Positions 1,821-39,940 of a stretch of DNA of 64,000 nt are shown here, in pieces. Below the pieces are notes generated by a model. That model had not been told where the DNA came from. It worked only from the letters and a program-made list of their open reading frames with translations, and made no database searches. The first letter of the stretch is position 1, and each line of letters begins with the position of its first letter. A program made the position numbers and the translations under genes. Source of the stretch: Escherichia coli. GTDB lineage: Bacteria > Pseudomonadota > Gammaproteobacteria > Enterobacterales > Enterobacteriaceae. The stretch lies in assembly GCF_024502345.1 (NCBI RefSeq), contig NZ_JALDNN010000001.1. The stretch is one strand, 5' to 3'.

Positions 1821-2666
1821 TCATATTGTTCCCCCCGGCATCGCATTCACCAGACCTGAAACCGCCTTCTGCGCCGCCTCTGCGCTTTGTGCACCGGGTA
1901 CCAGAATCACCTTACGGCACTCCTCTTCACGTTTTTCGAAAATCTCATATCCCCGGGCGGCCTCTTCAAACGGCATATAGTGGGTAACAATTTCTTCTGG
2001 TTTCAGTAATCCTTTCTCAATTAACGGTAATAATTCTCCCAGCCATGCGTGAACGTGGGTCTGTCCCATTTTAAACGTCAACCCTTTATCAAAGGCGTCG
2101 CCAAACAGGAAACCGTGAATAAATCCAGCGTAGACGCCCGGTACGCTAACAATGCCGCCACGCCTGACCGCCCCAATACACTGACGCAACGCTTTACCGC
2201 TGCTGCCCTCCAGTTTCAGGTTAGTCAGCACCGTTTCCGTGGTGCTGCCTTTCGCTTCAAAACCGACGGCGTCTATTACTGCATCCACGCCCCGGTGACC
2301 TGCCGTTTGTTCAATAATTGACTGTGCCGGATCGCTATCTTCATCGAAATTAATCGGGATCGCGCCGTAGCGGTCGGCGGCGAAACGCAAGCGGTAGGGA
2401 TGATGATCAACAACAAAAATCTGTTCCGCACCGAGCAACCGTGCACAGGCGATTGTCAACAATCCCACAGGACCAGCACCATAGACTGCAACGCTTGAAC
2501 CTTGTTGGATCTGCGCATTTTTTGCTGCCTGCCATGCCGTTGGCAGAATATCAGAAAGGAAAAGCGCTTTATCATCTGCAAGCAAAGGCGGTACTTTAAA
2601 CGGCCCCACATTCCCTCTAGGGACGCGGACATATTCCGCCTGCCCACCATGTTCAGTGAGAATATA
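1821..2666 (-). pseudogene. ybdR: 5'-truncated Zn-dependent MDR-family dehydrogenase YbdR; only about the C-terminal 280 codons present
   Basis: ORF 1821..2609 carries the Rossmann GAGPVG motif near its own N-terminus; homology continues in frame 16 codons further ([14 protein letters not shown]) to a TAA at 2667-2669. The N-terminal catalytic domain (about 130 aa) is absent and there is no room for it before uspG at 2773. Confidence 0.6.
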
Positions 2667-2772
2667 TTAATCACAGAAACCGTTTGTAAGGAAAAAGAAC
2701 CAGACAAATATCAGGGATAAATATTATAATCATGGTGAATGATTTGTTCATGATTAACAGGGAGAAAGGGTT

Positions 2773-3201
2773 ATGTATAAGACAATCATTATGCCAGTTG
2801 ATGTATTTGAAATGGAATTGAGCGACAAAGCTGTTCGCCACGCTGAATTCCTCGCCCAGGATGACGGAGTTATTCATCTACTTCACGTACTACCCGGGTC
2901 AGCCAGCCTGAGCCTGCACCGTTTTGCCGCTGATGTGCGTCGTTTTGAAGAGCATCTGCAACATGAAGCAGAAGAACGTCTGCAAACGATGGTCAGCCAC
3001 TTCACCATCGATCCTTCCCGCATTAAACAACATGTCCGTTTTGGTAGCGTGCGGGATGAAGTCAATGAGTTGGCAGAAGAACTGGGGGCTGATGTTGTAG
3101 TTATTGGTTCTCGCAACCCATCGATTTCGACCCATCTGTTAGGTTCTAACGCCTCGAGCGTGATCCGCCACGCCAATCTGCCTGTACTGGTCGTTCGCTA
3201 A
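2773..3201 (+). CDS. uspG: Universal stress protein G, 142 aa
   Basis: ORF 2773..3201; [42 protein letters not shown]... matches UspG (YbdQ). Confidence 0.92.
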
Positions 3202-3220
3202 CAGATAAAAGTATTTATGC

Positions 3221-3253
3221 CGCCCTGCCTGGAACATCCCGGCAGGGCTTTTT
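3221..3253 (+). terminator. Rho-independent terminator of uspG (gccctgcctgg...cccggcagggc then TTTTT)
   Basis: Inverted repeat followed by a T-run just after the uspG stop. Confidence 0.65.
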
Positions 3254-3261
3254 AATGCCAT

Positions 3262-3296
3262 AAAAAAGCCGCCAGGTTTGACCCCGGCGGCTAAGC
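3262..3296 (-). terminator. Rho-independent terminator of ahpCF (minus strand: gccgccgggg...cctggcggc then TTTTTT)
   Basis: Inverted repeat plus T-run on the minus strand, just downstream of the ahpF stop at 3322. Confidence 0.65.
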
Positions 3297-3321: not shown

Positions 3322-4887
3322 TTATGCAGTTTTGGTGCGAATCAGGTAGTCAAAAGCACTCAGAGAGGCTTTGGCACCTTCGCCAGTGGCGATGATGATC
3401 TGCTTGTACGGAACCGTCGTACAGTCACCCGCTGCGAACACGCCTTTGACGTTGGTTTCGCATTTCGCATCAATGATAATCTCGCCCATGCGGTTACGTT
3501 CGACTGCGCCTTCCAGCCAGTTGGTGTTCGGCAGCAGACCAATCTGGACGAAAATACCGGCCAGTTCGATGTTGTGAATATCGCCGCTGACACGATCTCG
3601 ATATTCCAGACCAACGACTTTGCTGCCGTCGCCTTTCACTTCCGTGGTTTGCGCATTCAGAATAATGTCGACGTTTTTCAGGCTGCGCAGTTTGTCCTGC
3701 AGCACCTGGTCGGCTTTCATTTCTGGCGCAAATTCCAGCAGCGTTACGTGCTCAACGATACCCGCCAGGTCGATTGCCGCTTCCACGCCGGAGTTACCGC
3801 CGCCGATAACCGCTACGCGTTTGCCTTTAAACAGCGGGCCGTCGCAGTGCGGGCAGTAGGTCACGCCTTTGGTGCGATACTGATCTTCGCCCGGAACGTT
3901 CATGTTGCGCCATTTTGCTCCGGTCGCCACGATAATGCTGCGTGCTTTCAGTACCGCGCCAGAAGCTGTTTCAATCTGATGCAGACCACCTTCAACTGCT
4001 GCTGGGATCAGTTTGCTGGCGCTCTGGCTGTCGATCACATCAACGTCGTATTCATCAACGTGAACTTTCAGTGCGCCTGCCAACTTCTGCCCTTCAGTCT
4101 TCGGTACAGAAATGTAGTTTTCGATATCAACGGTATCGAGGATCTGACCACCAAAACGTTCGCCCATCAGACCGGTACGGATGCCTTTACGTGCGGAGTA
4201 AATTGCTGCCGCTGCACCCGCCGGGCCGGAACCAACGATTAATACGTCATAAGCATCACGCTTGTTCAGCTCTTCTGCCGCACGTTTTTCCGCGCCAGTA
4301 TCAATTTTGGCAACGATTTCAGTCAACGTCATGCGGCCCTGACCAAACTCTTTCCCGTTTACGAACACTGCCGGAACGCCCATCACGTTACGATCGGTGA
4401 TTTCGTTCTGGAAGGTGCCGCCATCAATTGCAGTGTGCTTGATGCGCGGGTTCAGTACGCTCATCAGGTTCAGCGCCTGCACCACGTCCGGGCAGTTGTG
4501 GCAAGAGAGCGAGTAATAGGTTTCGAATTCAAAATCACCGTCAATATGGCGAATCTGCTCCAGCAGAGACTGCGCTTCTTTCGACGGATGACCACCGGTC
4601 CACAGCAACGCCAGTACCAGCGAGGTGAACTCATGGCCCAGCGGGGAGCCTGCAAAACGTGGCCCCTGGTTGGAACCTGGGTTGGTGATCAGGAAAGACG
4701 GCTTACGCACTGGCAAGCTGTTATCTTCTTTAAAGGTGACTTTGTCTGACAGTTCTGCGATTTCAGCCAACAGTTCCTTGATTTCTGCCGATTTAGCGCT
4801 GTCATCCAGCGTGGCAATTAACTCAACAGGCTTGGTCAATTTCTCAAGGTAAGCCTTGAGTTGAGTTTTCATATTTGTGTCGAGCAT
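3322..4887 (-). CDS. ahpF: Alkyl hydroperoxide reductase subunit F (NADH-dependent peroxiredoxin reductase), 521 aa
   Basis: ORF 3322..4917; start refined to [17 protein letters not shown]; CxxC redox motif (CPHCDGP) and FAD/NAD-binding glycine motifs present. Confidence 0.93.
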
Positions 4888-5043
4888 GTTTATCTCCTGG
4901 GCTTTAAACATCATCATGCAAGCGGCCTCTACGGCTACCTGGATGCAGCTTGCATCATGGTGCGGGGAAGAAAATCGGGTGCCGCAGCACCCGAAGAATT
5001 AGGTGAATTTCCGAAGTATTTCGCGTCAGAGCAAGGCGGCTAG

Positions 5044-5128
5044 CCTGTGAATCCCCGGGAGCTTACACAAGTAAGTGACCGGGGTGAGCGGGCGACGCCA
5101 ACGCCGCTATGGCGTGAAAGACGAAGGA
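5044..5128. repeat. ERIC/IRU-type intergenic repeat (core gtgaatccccgggagcttacacaagtaagtgaccggggtgagcg)
   Basis: Match to the ERIC consensus core with its internal inverted repeat, in the ahpC-ahpF intergenic region. Confidence 0.7.
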
Positions 5129-5131
5129 AAT

Positions 5132-5695
5132 TTAGATTTTACCAACCAGGTCCAGAGACGGAGCCAGAGTTGCTTCACCTTCTTTCCATTTAGCCGGGCA
5201 AACTTCACCTGGGTGAGAAGCTACGTACTGTGCTGCTTTGATTTTACGCAGCAGGTCAGACGCGTCACGGCCAATGCCTTCAGCGGTAACTTCGATTGCC
5301 TGGATGATACCCTGCGGGTCAACAACGAAGGTCGCACGGTCAGCCAGACCTTCATCTTCACGCATGTTGTCGAAGTTACGGGTCAGGGCGCCAGTCGGGT
5401 CGCCGATCATCGCATATTTGATTTTAGCGATGGTTTCAGAGCTGCTGTGCCATGCTTTGTGGGTGAAGTGAGTATCGGTAGATACTGCGTATACGTCTAC
5501 GCCCAGTTTCTGCAGTTCTTCGTAGTGGTCAGCAACGTCACCCAGTTCGGTCGGGCATACGAAAGTAAAGTCAGCCGGGTAGAAGAAGAAGACGCTCCAG
5601 CGGCCTTCGGTATCTTTTTCGGTGATTTCGATGAATTCGCCGTTTTTGAATGCCTGGTTTTTAAAAGGTTTAATTTTGGTGTTAATCAAGGACAT
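5132..5695 (-). CDS. ahpC: Alkyl hydroperoxide reductase subunit C (2-Cys peroxiredoxin), 187 aa
   Basis: ORF 5132..5695; [51 protein letters not shown]... matches AhpC. Confidence 0.95.
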
Positions 5696-6066
5696 CTATA
5701 CTTCCTCCGTGTTTTCGATGAGATGTAAGGTAACCAATTTTTACCGATTCGGCTAATGCGTTTCCATTATCAAATCGATAAGTTTTACCTTACAACCTTC
5801 GTAAGACAACTTTGTGAACTTTGCACCGCCAGCGGCGATAAAAAGTAAAATGGCCCCCTTTCCAGGTGACCGTGTAATCTGAACTACCCTTTGGTATCTT
5901 CAGCGCCTGCCTGCAGGCTGAGGTGTTGCCCTTACAAATGCAACAACGACATGGATTACAACACCCTCATAAACAAAGGGCAATCACCTGATCTAAGCTC
6001 TTACCTATGACAGTGATAGGTTATGCCTTTTACTCGACTTTTGCACTGACTGAAAAGGACAAATTA

Positions 6067-35490: not shown

Positions 35491-35590
35491 GCCGGATGCG
35501 GCGTGAACGCCTTATCCGGCCTACAAAAATCTTGCCAATTCAATATATTGCAGGACCATGTAGGCCTGATAAGCGTAGCGCATCAGGCAG
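35491..35590. repeat. BIME (pair of inverted REP elements) between fepA and entD
   Basis: gccggatgcggcgtgaacgccttatccggcctaca and the inverted tgtaggcctgataagcgtagcgcatcaggc. Confidence 0.8.
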
Positions 35591-35616: not shown

Positions 35617-36246
35617 ATGGTCGATATGAAAACTACGCATACCTCCCTCCCCTTTGCCGGACATACGCTGCATTTTGTTGAGTTCGATCCGGCGAATTTT
35701 TGTGAGCAGGATTTACTCTGGCTGCCGCACTACGCACAACTGCAACACGCTGGACGTAAACGTAAAACAGAGCATTTAGCCGGACGGATCGCTGCTGTTT
35801 ATGCCTTGCGGGAATATGGCTATAAATGTGTGCCCGCAATCGGCGAGCTACGCCAACCGGTGTGGCCTGCGGAGGTATACGGCAGTATTAGCCACTGCGG
35901 GGCTACGGCATTGGCCGTGGTTTCCCGTCAACCGATTGGCGTTGATATCGAAGAAATTTTTTCTGCGCAAACAGCGACCGAATTGACAGACAACATTATT
36001 ACACCAGCAGAACACGAGCGACTCGCAGACTGCGGTTTAGCCTTTTCTCTGGCGCTGACACTGGCATTTTCCGCCAAAGAGAGCGCATTTAAGGCAAGTG
36101 AGATCCAAACTGATGCAGGTTTTCTGGACTATCAGATAATTAGCTGGAATAAACAGCAGGTCATCATTCATCGTGAGAATGAGATGTTTGCTGTGCACTG
36201 GCAGATAAAAGAAAAAATAGTCATAACTCTGTGCCAACACGATTAA
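35617..36246 (+). CDS. entD: Enterobactin synthase phosphopantetheinyl transferase EntD, 209 aa
   Basis: ORF 35476..36246 (which runs through the REP) trimmed to MVDMKTTHTSLPFAGHTLHFVEFDPANF... Confidence 0.88.
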   Translation: MVDMKTTHTSLPFAGHTLHFVEFDPANFCEQDLLWLPHYAQLQHAGRKRKTEHLAGRIAAVYALREYGYKCVPAIGELRQPVWPAEVYGSISHCGATALAVVSRQPIGVDIEEIFSAQTATELTDNIITPAEHERLADCGLAFSLALTLAFSAKESAFKASEIQTDAGFLDYQIISWNKQQVIIHRENEMFAVHWQIKEKIVITLCQHD

Positions 36247-36270
36247 TTGACAACATCTGGTACGATTCGC

Positions 36271-36735
36271 CCGCAGCCATCACTGACTGCGGGCGAAAGT
36301 GTAAAGCAGGTGCCTTACCACTCTGACCTGACAACCGGATATGCGGGGATTGCTCCCCGCACAACGGCTACTTCTTCGGTTCGTAAGCGAGAACAGCCTT
36401 AAACTCAATATTACGTTCCTTTACGGTGAACTCACACAGCGAGTCTCCGACCAGAAGCGTAAATCCCAGCACCGTCAAACACAGCACTATGACTGCCACA
36501 AGGGCATATTTCGTCAGCATGTTTATATTGCCTCCATGCGAAGAAGGGACTACCATCCGAGTTGTTCAGGTTCGGAGTGGCAGCCCCAGGATTGATAGAA
36601 ATATCTCCTGGGGCTTCATCTTTCCAAACCTCAGAGTTAACCTGAAACCGGAAAGCTTCAGGCACCCGCCGTTATCTTACCCTTCCTTAGCAAAATAGCT
36701 GTTTATTTATACAGTGAATCCTGTTTCGGACTTCT
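36271..36735 (-). other. Intact hok/sok-type type I toxin-antitoxin locus (copy 1), about 93% identical to the IS186-associated copy at 36769..36859 plus 38199..38588
   Basis: About 465-bp unit containing the mok/hok overlapping reading frames and flanking conserved leader and 3' sequences; repeated with point differences around IS186. Confidence 0.6.
36368..36520 (-). CDS. Hok-family small membrane toxin, 50 aa ([50 protein letters not shown]), with overlapping mok frame 36368..36556
   Basis: ORF 36368..36556; the last 50 codons are a canonical Hok toxin; differs by K to R at one position from the copy at 38220..38372. Confidence 0.75.
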
Positions 36736-36859
36736 GTCGGCAAAACTCATCATTGCTCTTAAAACGAAACCGCCCGCAGCCATCACTGACCGCGGGCGAA
36801 AGTGTAAAGCAGGTGCCTTACCATCCTGACCTGACAACCGGATATGCGGGGATTACTCC

Positions 36860-38198
36860 CATAAGCGCTAACTTAAGGGTTGAACCATCTGAAGAATGCG
36901 ACGCCTCGGTGCCTCGTTAAGACGATGCCTCGCGTTCTTCAATTGCGTTTTGTAGGCTGTCAGGGATACTGTCCCACGAATGGCCACCTGTAAGCTCCAG
37001 ATGACCATTTTTGTTATTCTCCACAACGAGTTAGTTCTTCTTTTCGGATCCGGCACTTCTGGGGGGGAAATCCAGCGATGGCTGGATTATGTCGTCAATT
37101 AAAAATGCGGCGAGTAGATTAGCAAATATCCACGCTTTCGCGAGTTCAGGTTCCTTTGCACGCAAAGCATCCAGGTGCAGCAAACTTTTGAGCCGCTTAA
37201 AAGCCAGTTCAATTTGCCATCGCAGACGGTAACAATCAGCCACTTGCTCTGCTGAATATTCATCTTCCGGTAATGATGTTAGCAATAGCACATGGCCCGC
37301 TGCTTCCAGCGTTTCCGCCTGAACTACTCGTCCTTTTCGACGATTCTCGCTGAGCAGTCGGGTTTTACTGATTAATGCTTTTTCGGGAGGAAGTGATACG
37401 GCAATGAGACGTGCCGGAAAGGGAGCTCCGGCTTTTTTATTACCTGAATTGCCTATCATTACAGTGGTTTCACCGTTCTTACCGCAATCCAGCCCGCGCA
37501 GAAAACCCATCATGTCAAAGCGCATTCCTTCTGCAGTTAACCAGCGCAATCCTCGCCAGTGAACCCGGACGATATAATCAGCTTCTCCAAAAGCAAGTGA
37601 GCGGATACATTCGGGACGCGAACCGAATCCCCGGTCAGCAATGCGTATCTCGTCTGCCGTTTGCGCAAATCGGTCCAGCCGTTCAGCGTCTCTGCTGTCG
37701 GTTAGCTCAAAATCAGTGAACTGACAGGTATGAGGATCATATCCCATATGTAGTCGCCATTCAGCGCTGCCGCCCCCGGGCGCACTGATTGCTGTTCCAT
37801 CGACAAGACGCAATCTCTTTCCGCTTGTACAACCCGTAACTGCGGCGCGCACAGCAAGTGTTTGTGCGGCAAGTATGCCAAACCAGTCGGCGGCATTCCG
37901 CAGCCGCTTCAGGAGAGCCACGTCAGATAATGTTGCAACGTCATGGAGCTGAGCCCATGCAGTGACTTCACGTAATGACATCCCCCCGGGGCCGTAAGCC
38001 AGCCCCAGACGTAGCAGAGTTGCAGCATCACGAATTTCGCGGCGGCGGGTTAGAGCCCCGGCATTACGTGCCGAAGTATCCAGTTCTTCGGGCTTACCAA
38101 TATGGGCCAGAATTGCTGACCAGTTATCGTGAGAGTAATTCATCGGCACGTTAAATCATATCAGGCGTAATACCACAACCCTTAAGTTAGCGCTTATG
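36860..38198 (-). mobile_element. IS186 (IS4 family), about 1339 bp, terminal inverted repeats cataagcgctaacttaagggttg; 10-bp target duplication ggattactcc at 36850-36859 and 38199-38208
   Basis: Inverted repeats at both ends, flanking direct repeat, and an InsL transposase ORF inside. Confidence 0.88.
37031..38143 (-). CDS. insL: IS186 transposase InsL, 370 aa
   Basis: ORF 37031..38149; (MP)MNYSHDNWSAILAHIGKPEELDTSARNAGALTRRREIRDAATLLRLGLAYG... matches IS186 transposase. Confidence 0.9.
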   Translation of the reverse strand: MNYSHDNWSAILAHIGKPEELDTSARNAGALTRRREIRDAATLLRLGLAYGPGGMSLREVTAWAQLHDVATLSDVALLKRLRNAADWFGILAAQTLAVRAAVTGCTSGKRLRLVDGTAISAPGGGSAEWRLHMGYDPHTCQFTDFELTDSRDAERLDRFAQTADEIRIADRGFGSRPECIRSLAFGEADYIVRVHWRGLRWLTAEGMRFDMMGFLRGLDCGKNGETTVMIGNSGNKKAGAPFPARLIAVSLPPEKALISKTRLLSENRRKGRVVQAETLEAAGHVLLLTSLPEDEYSAEQVADCYRLRWQIELAFKRLKSLLHLDALRAKEPELAKAWIFANLLAAFLIDDIIQPSLDFPPRSAGSEKKN

Positions 38199-38219
38199 GG
38201 ATTACTCCCCGCACAACGG

Positions 38220-38372
38220 CTACTTCTTCGGTTCGTAAGCGAGAACAGCCCTGAACTCAATATTACGTTCCTTCACCGTAAACTCACACAGCGAGTCTCC
38301 GACCAGAAGCGTAAATCCCAGTACCGTCAAACACAGCACTATGACTGCCACAAGGGCATATTTCGTCAGCAT
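38220..38372 (-). CDS. hokE: Hok-family toxin HokE, 50 aa; IS186 lies about 21 bp downstream of its stop codon
   Basis: ORF 38220..38516; the last 50 codons [50 protein letters not shown]. Confidence 0.75.
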
Positions 38373-38812
38373 GTTTATATTGCCTCCATGCGAAGAAGGA
38401 ACTACCATCCAAATTGTCTGGTTTGGAGTGGCAGCCCCAGGGTTGATAGAAATATCTCCTGGGGCTTCATCTTTCCAGACCTCAGAGTAAACCTGAAACC
38501 GGAAAGCTTCAGGCACCCGCCGTTATCTTACCCTTCCTCAACAAAATAGCTGTTTATTTATACAGTAAATCCTGTTTCGGACTTCTCACTCCTCATTTAA
38601 TCAACTGAAGCTGAGCCCGTTTTTTCTGCATGCCTCAATCGTCAAAATTCTTCGCCACCAGCCAGCCGTGCCATAACTTGTCACATTGCAAAAGTAGCCA
38701 AATTGCTTCAGGCACCATCAGTTCACCATCACCAAAAAAAGAAACATTCCAGAACTTCCGCATCTCGCCCAGCCGCTCCGACTTCTATACTGAATAGAAA
38801 ACGCCAACATAA

Positions 38813-39940
<1,128 letters not shown>

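Follow-up and report, generated by a model that had tools for sequence, protein, structure and literature searches.

Between entD and ybdK, the window analyzed here (64,000 nucleotides of Escherichia coli DNA) carries a hok unit twice, and an insertion sequence lies directly behind one of the two. This arrangement raises the question of which toxin-antitoxin locus is present and whether either copy retains the elements of a regulated system. The results very probably describe a two-copy tandem chromosomal hokE/sokE locus with IS186 behind the ybdK-proximal copy, in which copy 1 is element-complete and copy 2 is deregulated.

The locus is hokE/sokE, and its features point to a type I toxin-antitoxin locus on an E. 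coli-lineage chromosome. It is bounded on the left by entD (phosphopantetheinyl transferase; 35626..36246, plus strand), an ORF with Pfam 4PPT_N and ACPS domains that is annotated entD in syntenic loci, and on the right by ybdK (carboxylate-amine ligase; 38822..39940, plus strand), identified by ORF, Pfam and the annotation of syntenic loci. RefSeq shows two hokE genes in loci with the matching order entD-hokE-hokE-ybdK. In K-12, the same site holds hokE, sokE and IS186B, and orthology to b4415/b4835 follows from position and high nucleotide identity (95.7% for copy 1 and 97.4% for copy 2). The K-12 locus also shares the LexA box, the Sok promoter and the tac/fbi elements. Both leaders match the full-length Rfam model RF01794 (sok) on the hok strand, scoring 79.3 and 80.2 bits where the gathering score is 59 (E about 1e-17), and both 50-aa ORFs match Pfam PF01848 HOK_GEF, with 34.0 (hok-1) and 33.3 bits (hok-2) against a cut-off of 22. 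A chance match is thus ruled out. NCBIfam Hok models also match both ORFs, with scores below those models' own cut-offs.

Plasmid R1's hok/sok system is the paradigm of type I toxin-antitoxin systems. Like R1, the window locus encodes a Hok-family toxin whose leader fits the same Rfam model, and it has the tac/fbi closure, a post-ORF GC hairpin and a Sok encoded antisense in cis whose 5' tail is single-stranded. Unlike R1, it is chromosomal and duplicated, has a LexA box and shows no evident mok AUG where R1 has one. Chromosomal hok loci are not expected to mediate post-segregational killing.

As a discovery, the locus matters little, since RefSeq already annotates two hokE genes there. The arrangement is a known and ordinary polymorphism, common among annotated genomes and not peculiar to one of them, and hokE, its IS186 neighbor, SOS control and tandem hok 'islets' have all been published previously. 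Such islets group 2-6 hok genes at distances below 2 kb, and local tandem duplication of a hok cluster was reported for 10% of Hok sequences (bioRxiv 10.1101/2025.08.07.668861). The window pair likewise represents one hok cluster duplicated locally in tandem. The searched text of that preprint, in which the terms 'IS186', 'tandem' and 'entD' are absent, is silent on the hokE pair, on its occupancy by IS186 and on its Sok divergence.

The IS186 insertion and its recurrence

IS186 occupies 36860..38198 (1339 bp, minus strand), as delimited by repeat search, by its inverted ends (CATAAGCGCTAACTTAAGGGTTG) and by Pfam and NCBIfam transposase matches. On either side of it (36850-36859 and 38199-38208) stands the target duplication of 10 bp, GGATTACTCC, inside a GGGG-N6-CCCC motif; the earlier note had given the same coordinates and duplication. 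The transposase ORF (37031-38149, minus strand) runs in the same direction as hok-2 and scores 93.7 bits with DDE_Tnp_1 (Pfam) and 133 bits with an NCBIfam IS4 family model. IS186, of the IS4 family, has terminal inverted repeats of about 23 bp. The element in the window has the traits of this class, namely a length of about 1.34 kb, inverted ends, a transposase of the DDE type and a GC-rich target duplicated over 10 bp, and it differs from K-12 IS186B at one of 1339 bases.

The hok-2 stop codon is at 38220-38222 (minus strand), so IS186 starts 21 nt beyond it, in agreement with the estimate in the earlier note of about 21 bp. The insertion is also, as that note claimed, in the 3' region of the hok-2 mRNA, where it splits the ORF from the fbi element and the terminator. 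The parallel drawn there with K-12 hokE proved exact: insertion site, target duplication and orientation relative to hokE are those of IS186B. The hokE/sokE locus of K-12 with IS186B was reportedly described by Pedersen and Gerdes in 1999, in Mol Microbiol 32:1090. K-12 differs in having a single copy, of the ybdK-proximal (copy 2) type, whereas the window has an additional, apparently intact entD-proximal copy. Because the single copy carries IS186B, K-12 is without an IS-free hokE.

A second hok locus of K-12 has a similar insertion. At hokC (gef)/sokC, IS186A has entered the corresponding GGGG-N6-CCCC hairpin behind the ORF, some 20 nt beyond the stop, and is flanked by the 10-bp duplication GGATCACTCC; hokC differs in being another paralogue at another locus, and IS186A is oppositely oriented relative to hok. 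The IS186 target consensus was reportedly defined by saiSree et al. in 2001 as a G-run, a short spacer and a C-run. This target type fits the hokC and hokE sites and the duplication GGGGTGCCCCC, which was published for an unrelated IS186B capture (PMC12102499).

Insertion at the hokE hairpin is widespread among 5426 complete E. coli genomes. IS186 is directly behind the hokE ORF in the orientation of the window in 1873 genomes and in the opposite orientation in 1057, such that the hairpin is occupied in no fewer than 1873 and in as many as about 2900 genomes, in both orientations and behind either copy. At least 35% of complete E. coli genomes therefore carry IS186 at this hairpin in one orientation or the other. 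Both copies are affected in strains C227-11 and 88COLEC, where the hairpin of copy 1 is also taken by IS186; the copy 1 element of C227-11 is oppositely oriented. IS186 was never found inside the hokE ORF. The GGGG-N6-CCCC hairpin is very probably a preferred, recurrent target of IS186, and the insertion in the window one of many.

It is possible, albeit doubtful, that IS186 is kept behind hokE mainly because it silences a costly toxin, and not by target preference alone. The repeated occupation of a single hairpin, in either copy and both orientations, would be consistent with such adaptive inactivation, as would the third or so of genomes that are left without an uninterrupted hokE 3' UTR. 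K-12, in which two of three copies of IS186, the two examined here, lie behind hok genes, can be counted on the same side. However, the hokE site belongs to a target type seen elsewhere for IS186, and thus target preference alone predicts recurrence. Moreover, the toxin ORF itself is never disrupted, and up to 3646 genomes retain an uninterrupted hokE copy. Adaptive inactivation and the main explanation given here for the locus are not mutually exclusive.

Sequence elements of copy 1

Copy 1, the entD-proximal unit delimited as a member of the repeat families, spans 468 bp at 36268..36735 (minus strand) and is IS-free. As claimed in the earlier note, no IS lies near its 3' end. Its post-ORF GC hairpin (GUGCGGGGAGCAAUCCCCGCAU; 36340..36363, minus strand), contained in helix 14 of the homologue alignment and present in 14/14 homologues, is an unoccupied GGGG-N6-CCCC target. 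Strain comparison, one of the checks proposed in that note, found copy 1 to be 100% identical to copy 1 of the IS-free strains O157:H7 TR01 and 14EC033.

The hok-1 CDS (36368..36520, minus strand; Pfam HOK_GEF, 34 bits) encodes 50 aa, is preceded by a GGAGG Shine-Dalgarno sequence and is annotated at the same position as WP_000956465.1 (HokE) in five related genomes. The predicted full-length hok-1 mRNA is 402 nt (36266..36667, minus strand), with its 5' end placed at the start of the Rfam model (RF01794 match at 36512-36667) and its 3' end at the terminator hairpin. The latter, a GC hairpin (CGCCCGCAG...CUGCGGGCG; 36268..36295, minus strand), corresponds to helix 15 of the homologue alignment. 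It is not followed by a U-tract, and the terminator scan called only the hairpin of copy 2, which has one.

Folding of the mRNA, also proposed as a check, yielded a minimum free energy (MFE) of -181.8 kcal/mol (z = -9.0) and left the pairing between tac and fbi intact. Tac-1 (GGGUGCCU; 36660..36667, minus strand), placed at the 5' end of the mRNA by the Rfam match and the fold, forms an 8-bp helix with fbi-1 (AGGCACCU; 36308..36315, minus strand) in both the MFE and centroid folds. The same pairing was obtained for all 13 IS-removed units folded. This helix, helix 1 of the alignment, is kept in 14/14 homologues, and across the 14, from five species-level lineages, 99.5% of predicted base-pair cells are paired, with compensatory changes at 96:110, 98:108 and 380:395. 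Across homologues, the leader and the Shine-Dalgarno region hardly vary.

A Sok gene and promoter, which the earlier note had suggested looking for, are present in copy 1. The promoter (TTGCCT, 17 nt, TACCAT; 36528..36556, plus strand) has the hexamers and spacing found upstream of K-12 sokE, and 57 of the 60 nt of the predicted Sok-1 antisense RNA (36564..36623, plus strand) are identical to annotated K-12 sokE (b4835). Sok-1 is predicted to fold into a terminator-like hairpin preceded by an unpaired 5' tail of some 10 nt. A LexA-box-like palindrome, CTGT-N8-ACAG, was read from the sequence upstream of hok-1 (36699..36714), and the box CTGTATAAATAAACAG is found upstream of copy 1, copy 2 and K-12 hokE. 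LexA regulation of hokE has been reported (PMC11951105; PMC9040746). A strict sigma-70 scan returned zero promoters in the region and is uninformative for promoters as weak as those of hok and Sok, which were therefore placed by position and homology to K-12. No canonical mok start codon was seen by eye at the position equivalent to that of R1. Both copies conserve an ATG in frame with hok, 12 codons upstream of it, and in the K-12 annotation mokC likewise extends hokC in frame.

In its sequence, copy 1 thus appears to lack none of the elements that make up a regulated hok locus, and it looks structurally intact. The suggestion in the earlier note that it could be functional is borne out at the level of sequence, where ORF, Sok gene and tac/fbi are all intact. 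Unlike K-12, this genome could therefore be used to test the role of wild-type hokE.

By analogy with R1, copy 1 would be regulated as follows. The LexA box would lie over a weak hok promoter, and tac and fbi would close the 402-nt mRNA, which would be inert at full length. Slow 3' trimming would take off fbi, and the mRNA would then refold and undergo either translation or, once Sok has bound it, cleavage by RNase III. The Sok-target hairpin, the post-ORF GC hairpin and the divergently transcribed 60-nt Sok RNA would complete the system. DNA damage, through LexA cleavage, would lead to more hok transcription. In the tac/fbi/ucb/dcb model, the 3' stem-loop stabilizes truncated hok mRNA (PMC9841398).

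Alternatively, copy 1 may be an inert relic that produces no toxin under any condition and owes its retention only to hitch-hiking or to gene conversion with copy 2. This is unlikely. IS-free chromosomal hokA, hokB and hokC showed neither post-segregational killing nor a response to rifampicin (bioRxiv 10.1101/2025.08.07.668861), so an intact locus need not be an active one, and the missing U-tract, consensus promoter match and clear mok start of copy 1 would also be expected of a relic. However, the ORFs of the two copies are separated by five synonymous changes and one conservative change, and the conserved base pairs, the compensatory changes and the nearly invariant leader and Shine-Dalgarno regions described above are likewise unlike a decaying pseudogene. 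In addition, the overexpressed HokE CDS of MG1655 served as a toxic positive control (bioRxiv 10.1101/2025.08.07.668861). The preferred reading remains that copy 1 is a structurally intact hokE.

Tandem duplication and divergence of the copies

The 468-bp hok/sok unit of copy 1 recurs as 36771-36859 plus 38209-38586, confirming by repeat search and global alignment, with near base-for-base agreement, the earlier claim of a tandem duplication. The repeat pairs are 36268-36357 and 36771-36860 (96%), 36346-36565 and 38198-38417 (95%), and 36566-36735 and 38417-38586 (95%). Global alignment of both units, with IS186 and one copy of the target duplication taken out, gave 95.1% identity, with 23 differences over 468 columns including one 1-nt indel, and BLAST gave 95.3%; the earlier figure of about 93% was slightly low. 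The K versus R difference noted near the C-terminus of Hok was placed at codon 41 and is the only amino acid change (K41R). The units are separated by a 35-bp filler (36736..36770), identified by alignment and included in the junction query below, and the period is therefore 503 bp.

The 503-bp tandem pair is present between entD and ybdK in 1923 of the 5426 complete E. coli genomes, or about 35%. These were counted with a short junction query centered on the filler, and the two-piece matches that were inspected proved to be true tandems too. Population counts of this kind were not found in the literature searched. The pair is also present in E. whittamii, in Escherichia sp. MOD1-EC7003 and in a divergent 'E. 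coli' species representative. The presence of the junction in this many genomes and in three further Escherichia lineages upholds the view in the earlier note that the duplication is old. Identities between copies across lineages are mosaic (91-98%), without clean orthology of copy 1 or copy 2. The copies were consequently rejected as separate orthologous lineages across species, as loop alleles also swap between them. Matches of 18-mers in a Leucobacter metagenome-assembled genome and a Paenibacillus genome were dismissed as chance, since about 9 are expected in 2 x 298 Gb; with the full unit as BLAST query, one of these two genomes gave a match of only 23 nt and the other none.

RefSeq loci with two hokE copies, such as those of O157:H7 TR01, 14EC033 and O104:H4 2009EL-2050, have the same 503-bp tandem and filler. 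Strain 14EC033 is base-identical to the window at both copies but lacks the IS. O104:H4 2009EL-2050 has the same layout, with IS186 only behind copy 2, and differs in lineage haplotype (98.3% identical), whereas 88COLEC has IS186 behind both copies. The exact window haplotype with IS186 behind copy 2 only occurs in no complete genome of the collection, where the best full-length match is 98.3% over 35900-39000 and 98.5-98.8% over 25 kb at about 90% coverage. On these figures, the idea that the window belongs to K-12 or to one of the strains collected was rejected. Misassembly or recent unequal crossing-over can yield tandem repeats of about 500 bp, but a recent duplication in this strain or an assembly artefact is refuted by the 23 differing sites, by the same junction and filler in 1923 complete genomes and other Escherichia species, and by the base identity of 14EC033 at both copies.

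Copy 2 and the Sok recognition loop

IS186 divides copy 2 into two parts. The ybdK-proximal 5' part (38209..38586, minus strand) contains the LexA box, a palindrome read from the sequence at 38550..38565, the hok promoter, the leader, the Sok-2 gene and the hok-2 ORF (38220..38372, minus strand; 50 aa, Pfam HOK_GEF), which differs from Hok-1 at codon 41. The predicted Sok-2 antisense RNA (38416..38474, plus strand; about 59 nt, from K-12 sokE comparison and fold) has the promoter TTGCCT, 17 nt, TACCAT (38380..38408, plus strand). Tac-2 (38511..38518, minus strand), located by the Rfam match and the fold, is about 1.7 kb from fbi-2 (36811-36818, minus strand). The latter is in the detached 3' fragment (36771..36859, minus strand), which was identified by repeat search and terminator scan and also contains half of the target hairpin. 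The fragment includes the terminator hairpin of hok-2 (36771-36798, minus strand), called by the terminator scan, and the adjacent end of the filler provides its U-tract (GGUUUCGUUUU). Judged by sequence, copy 2 is severed from fbi and its terminator and retains its Sok gene.

IS186 would have entered the loop of the post-ORF GC hairpin, and the hok-2 transcript would read into the element in the sense direction of the transposase. Without the stabilizing hairpin, fbi and terminator, this transcript would not form a stable inert pool. Since it keeps its toxin ORF, LexA box and Sok gene and has lost fbi, copy 2 would combine a deregulated hok with a working Sok donor. With IS186 in place, the 5' end of hok-2 found no consistent long-range partner at any of the transcript lengths folded. 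In MFE folds of 3'-truncated hok mRNAs, the partners of tac differ between copy 1 and copy 2, with no consistent open conformation. The gef/hokC gene with IS186 is still transcribed, as an mRNA of about 644 nt that ends within the IS, and its regulation by antisense RNA persists (PMC3562002). It is conceivable, if improbable, that the copy hit by IS186 is maintained as a source of Sok and of SOS-inducible transcription into the IS186 transposase; if so, SOS-inducible read-through would tie IS186 expression to DNA damage.

The two Sok RNAs differ in the part that would recognize the target. The 5' tails of Sok-1 and Sok-2 are distinguished by three positions and one indel. No other part of the unit varies as much as the 15-nt Sok 5' tail/sokT loop, in which 53% of columns vary versus 14% in the rest (Fisher p = 5e-4). 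The two copies carry different versions of this stretch in each of the five distinct two-copy haplotypes tabulated, and its alleles swap between the copy 1 and copy 2 positions among lineages. Fast divergence of this stretch may keep the two hokE paralogues functionally apart, such that each Sok would mainly control its own hok, but this seems improbable. Full orthogonality of Sok-1 and Sok-2 is itself unlikely, as non-cognate duplexes of the Sok 5' tails still reach -15 to -23 kcal/mol, compared to -29 kcal/mol for cognate ones. Some cross-repression of hok-1 by Sok-2 may occur. With variation so concentrated in the recognition loop, cross-talk in duplicated type I toxin-antitoxin systems becomes a question open to test.

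The tandem hokE/sokE locus and its age

The tandem pair is the hokE/sokE locus of E. coli: it lies between entD, whose end is at 36246, and ybdK, which begins at 38822 (both recognized by ORF and Pfam), and this is the position of that locus. A repeat search of the window resolved a 468-bp minus-strand unit, in three collinear direct-repeat blocks, as copy 1 (entD-proximal, 36268-36735) and copy 2 (ybdK-proximal, 36771-36859 plus 38209-38586, split by IS186), as expected from the tandem hok/sok duplication proposed in the earlier note. A 35-bp filler (36736-36770) sets the period of 503 bp. Aligned without IS186 and with its target duplication reduced to a single copy, the units are 95.1% identical (23 of 468 positions differ, including one 1-nt indel), and BLAST gives 95.3%; the previous estimate of about 93% was too low. 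Both units match Rfam RF01794 above the gathering score, and both 50-aa hok ORFs match Pfam HOK_GEF. Between the two ORFs there are five synonymous substitutions and one K41R, the lysine-arginine difference already noticed.

The K-12 MG1655 locus reads ybdK, sokE, hokE, IS186B, entD, with one hok unit instead of two. RefSeq annotates two hokE genes here in many genomes, hokE is multiple in E. coli W but single in K-12 (PMC3032704), and tandem hok "islets" are known as a class (bioRxiv 10.1101/2025.08.07.668861). The locus and its two-copy annotation are already known; tandem hokE with IS186 is an ordinary feature, correctly recognized in the earlier note, whose interpretation is supported.

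Of 5426 complete E. coli genomes, 1923 matched a query centred on the filler junction and so carry the two-copy arrangement. Many two-copy loci lack the IS (e.g. O157:H7 TR01, 13E0725 and 14EC033), and both copies of 14EC033 are base-identical to those of the window. When a single genome from each bacterial species was scanned for exact words, the 502-503-bp spacing turned up in E. whittamii, in a divergent "E. coli" representative and in Escherichia sp. MOD1-EC7003, which bears out the claim that the duplication is old. By BLAST, the E. whittamii and divergent "E. coli" pairs sit between entD and ybdK, and ybdK was the only flank gene found adjoining the MOD1-EC7003 pair. E. albertii and Escherichia sp. 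E1V33 have a single hokE copy. Compared pairwise, the units all share 91-98% identity in a mosaic pattern: E. coli first copies cluster with the lone copies found in E. albertii and E1V33, the K-12 single copy clusters with second copies, and one loop allele occupies the first position in some lineages and the second in others. We infer an ancient duplication, with later gene conversion and, now and then, the loss of one copy or the other.

IS186 behind copy 2

IS186 occupies 36860-38198 (1339 bp, characteristic inverted ends, 10-bp duplication GGATTACTCC), the bounds given previously, and starts, as also stated, 21 nt beyond the hok-2 stop codon (38220-38222, minus). The suggested likeness to K-12 is exact in placement: IS186B differs from the window element by a single base and shares its insertion nucleotide, duplication and orientation relative to hokE. 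The insertion at hokE and its presumed effect were reportedly described by Pedersen and Gerdes in 1999.

The target lies immediately 3' of the ORF, in the loop of a conserved GC hairpin of 10 bp, GUGCGGGGAGYAAUCCCCGCAU (GGGG-N6-CCCC), which is kept in 14/14 homologues. IS186 lies directly behind the hokE ORF in the window orientation in 1873 genomes and in the opposite orientation in 1057; the window layout, in which IS186 follows the second member of a tandem pair, occurs in 169. In O104:H4 C227-11 a second IS186, oppositely oriented, follows copy 1, and in 88COLEC both copies are followed by an IS186, in the same orientation. Those behind copy 1 must have arisen independently. K-12 IS186A lies in the equivalent hairpin of hokC (GGCGGGGAGTGATCCCCGCC, duplication GGATCACTCC). 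The G-run/C-run target agrees with the IS186 consensus target reportedly described by saiSree et al. in 2001. An unrelated IS186B duplication, GGGGTGCCCCC, also fits this target (PMC12102499). An uninterrupted hokE 3' UTR is kept in at most 3646 genomes, an upper bound because the search can join pieces from neighbouring copies. The site is a hot spot.

Strains with IS186 behind both copies exist in either relative orientation (C227-11, with the IS186 copies at 1958-3296 and 3810-5148 of its locus; 88COLEC). Such pairs 500 bp apart, direct or inverted, could favour deletion or inversion of the hokE copy between them.

The insertion falls, as proposed, in the 3' region that hok mRNA needs: the 5' end of the hok-2 transcript (tac-2, 38511-38518) is cut off from its 3' pairing partner (fbi-2, 36811-36818) and from the terminator (36771-36798). 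In folds with 310 to 900 nt of read-through, stable 5' closure was never seen, and the partner of the 5' end changed with each length. Copy 2 retains the ORF, LexA box, Sok promoter and Sok gene. The transposase ORF is at 37031-38149 (minus), so that the hok-2 transcript runs into IS186 in the sense direction of this ORF. In the analogous gef/hokC-IS186 case, an mRNA of ~644 nt ends within the IS and antisense RNA regulation persists (PMC3562002).

Copy 1 and the Sok-target loop

Copy 1 appears intact by every sequence test available, supporting at that level the suggestion that it could be functional. The predicted hok-1 mRNA (36667 down to 36266, minus, 402 nt) has a folding energy of -181.8 kcal/mol, where shuffled sequences give -131.3 +/- 5.6 (z = -9.0). 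MFE and centroid structures alike pair its 5' GGGUGCCU with AGGCACCU close to the 3' end, a tac/fbi closure of the kind described for R1 hok mRNA (PMC9841398). All 13 IS-removed units show the same pairing, as does the RNAalifold consensus of the 14 homologues. Standard pairs fill 99.5% of pair cells on that consensus and fall to 35-46% when the 3' partners are slid by 1-3 columns; double compensatory substitutions occur at three pairs, one of them the 96:110 pair of the Sok-target hairpin, where G-C becomes A-U. These statistics support the hok structure but are not strong covariation evidence, since homologue diversity is low (97% mean column identity).

Predicted Sok-1 (36564-36623) is identical to annotated K-12 sokE at 57/60 nt and is preceded by TTGCCT-17-TACCAT, as in K-12. 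A LexA-type palindrome, CTGTATAAATAAACAG, upstream of both hok copies fits the SOS control of hokE, which is already known (PMC11951105, PMC9040746). Three points weaken the case for copy 1. Its terminator hairpin is not followed by a U-tract (that of copy 2 is, thanks to the filler), and a promoter scan found no consensus promoter at the locus. No clear mok start was found, the sole conserved candidate being an in-frame ATG 12 codons upstream of hok, which recalls the likewise in-frame mokC of K-12.

Differences between the copies cluster in the Sok-target hairpin loop, which corresponds to the Sok 5' tail. This 15-nt loop holds 7 of the 23 differences, varies at 8/15 columns against 14% elsewhere (14 homologues; Fisher p = 5e-4, post hoc), and differs between copies in all five distinct two-copy haplotypes tabulated. 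The 5'-tail duplexes are predicted at ~-29 kcal/mol when Sok and target are cognate and at -15 to -23 when they are not, so that any insulation between the copies would be only partial. The pattern is explained equally well by relaxed constraint, the antisense partner being encoded by the same DNA.

Other features of the window

A 98-aa ORF (38220-38516, minus) arises in copy 2 from a 1-nt Sok-target-loop deletion that brings an upstream GTG-initiated frame into register with hok; the equivalent frame of copy 1 is out of frame with hok (77-aa ORF). The deletion is common to IS-free copies of O157:H7, 14EC033, E. whittamii and others and is probably harmless if translation begins downstream of it. 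Both hok copies carry GCUUACGAACC (36378-36388 and 38230-38240, minus), a UACG motif at the Tyr46 codon that is invariant in 14/14 homologues; TadA A-to-I editing of hokC, hokD and hokE mRNAs reportedly recodes this position to Cys (bioRxiv 10.1101/2025.08.07.668861). A 117-aa ORF antisense to the hok-2 leader (38196-38549, plus), called "hypothetical protein" (WP_009008364.1) or a frameshifted pseudogene by RefSeq in related genomes, is probably a spurious call over the leader.

The gap between hokE copy 2 and ybdK is ~860 bp longer in E. whittamii, where the extra sequence (3700-4390 of that locus) holds an apparent minus-strand ORF of roughly 220 codons. Because window ~38620-38790 resembles, by eye, the two ends of this segment, E. 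coli may carry a deletion remnant of the gene.

For 39000-63900, no match among complete E. coli genomes in the collection exceeded 98.5-98.8% identity at ~90% coverage; annotated features beneath these matches include cus, nfrAB and T6SS vgrG/Rhs genes. The final 347 bp of the window's entD match Escherichia sp. E1V33 at every base. Among complete E. coli genomes, the window's lineage seems to have few representatives.

The fepA-entD intergenic region contains an Rfam match to the ES036 (CssrF) sRNA (35526-35567, plus; 40.5 bits, gathering score 37.6) and a partial, below-threshold match to REP-like naRNA4 (35500-35521, minus). Rfam matches above the gathering score were also obtained for the rnk leader (1026-1134, plus; 124.9 bits) and the STnc70 sRNA (5840-5933, minus; 44.1 bits).
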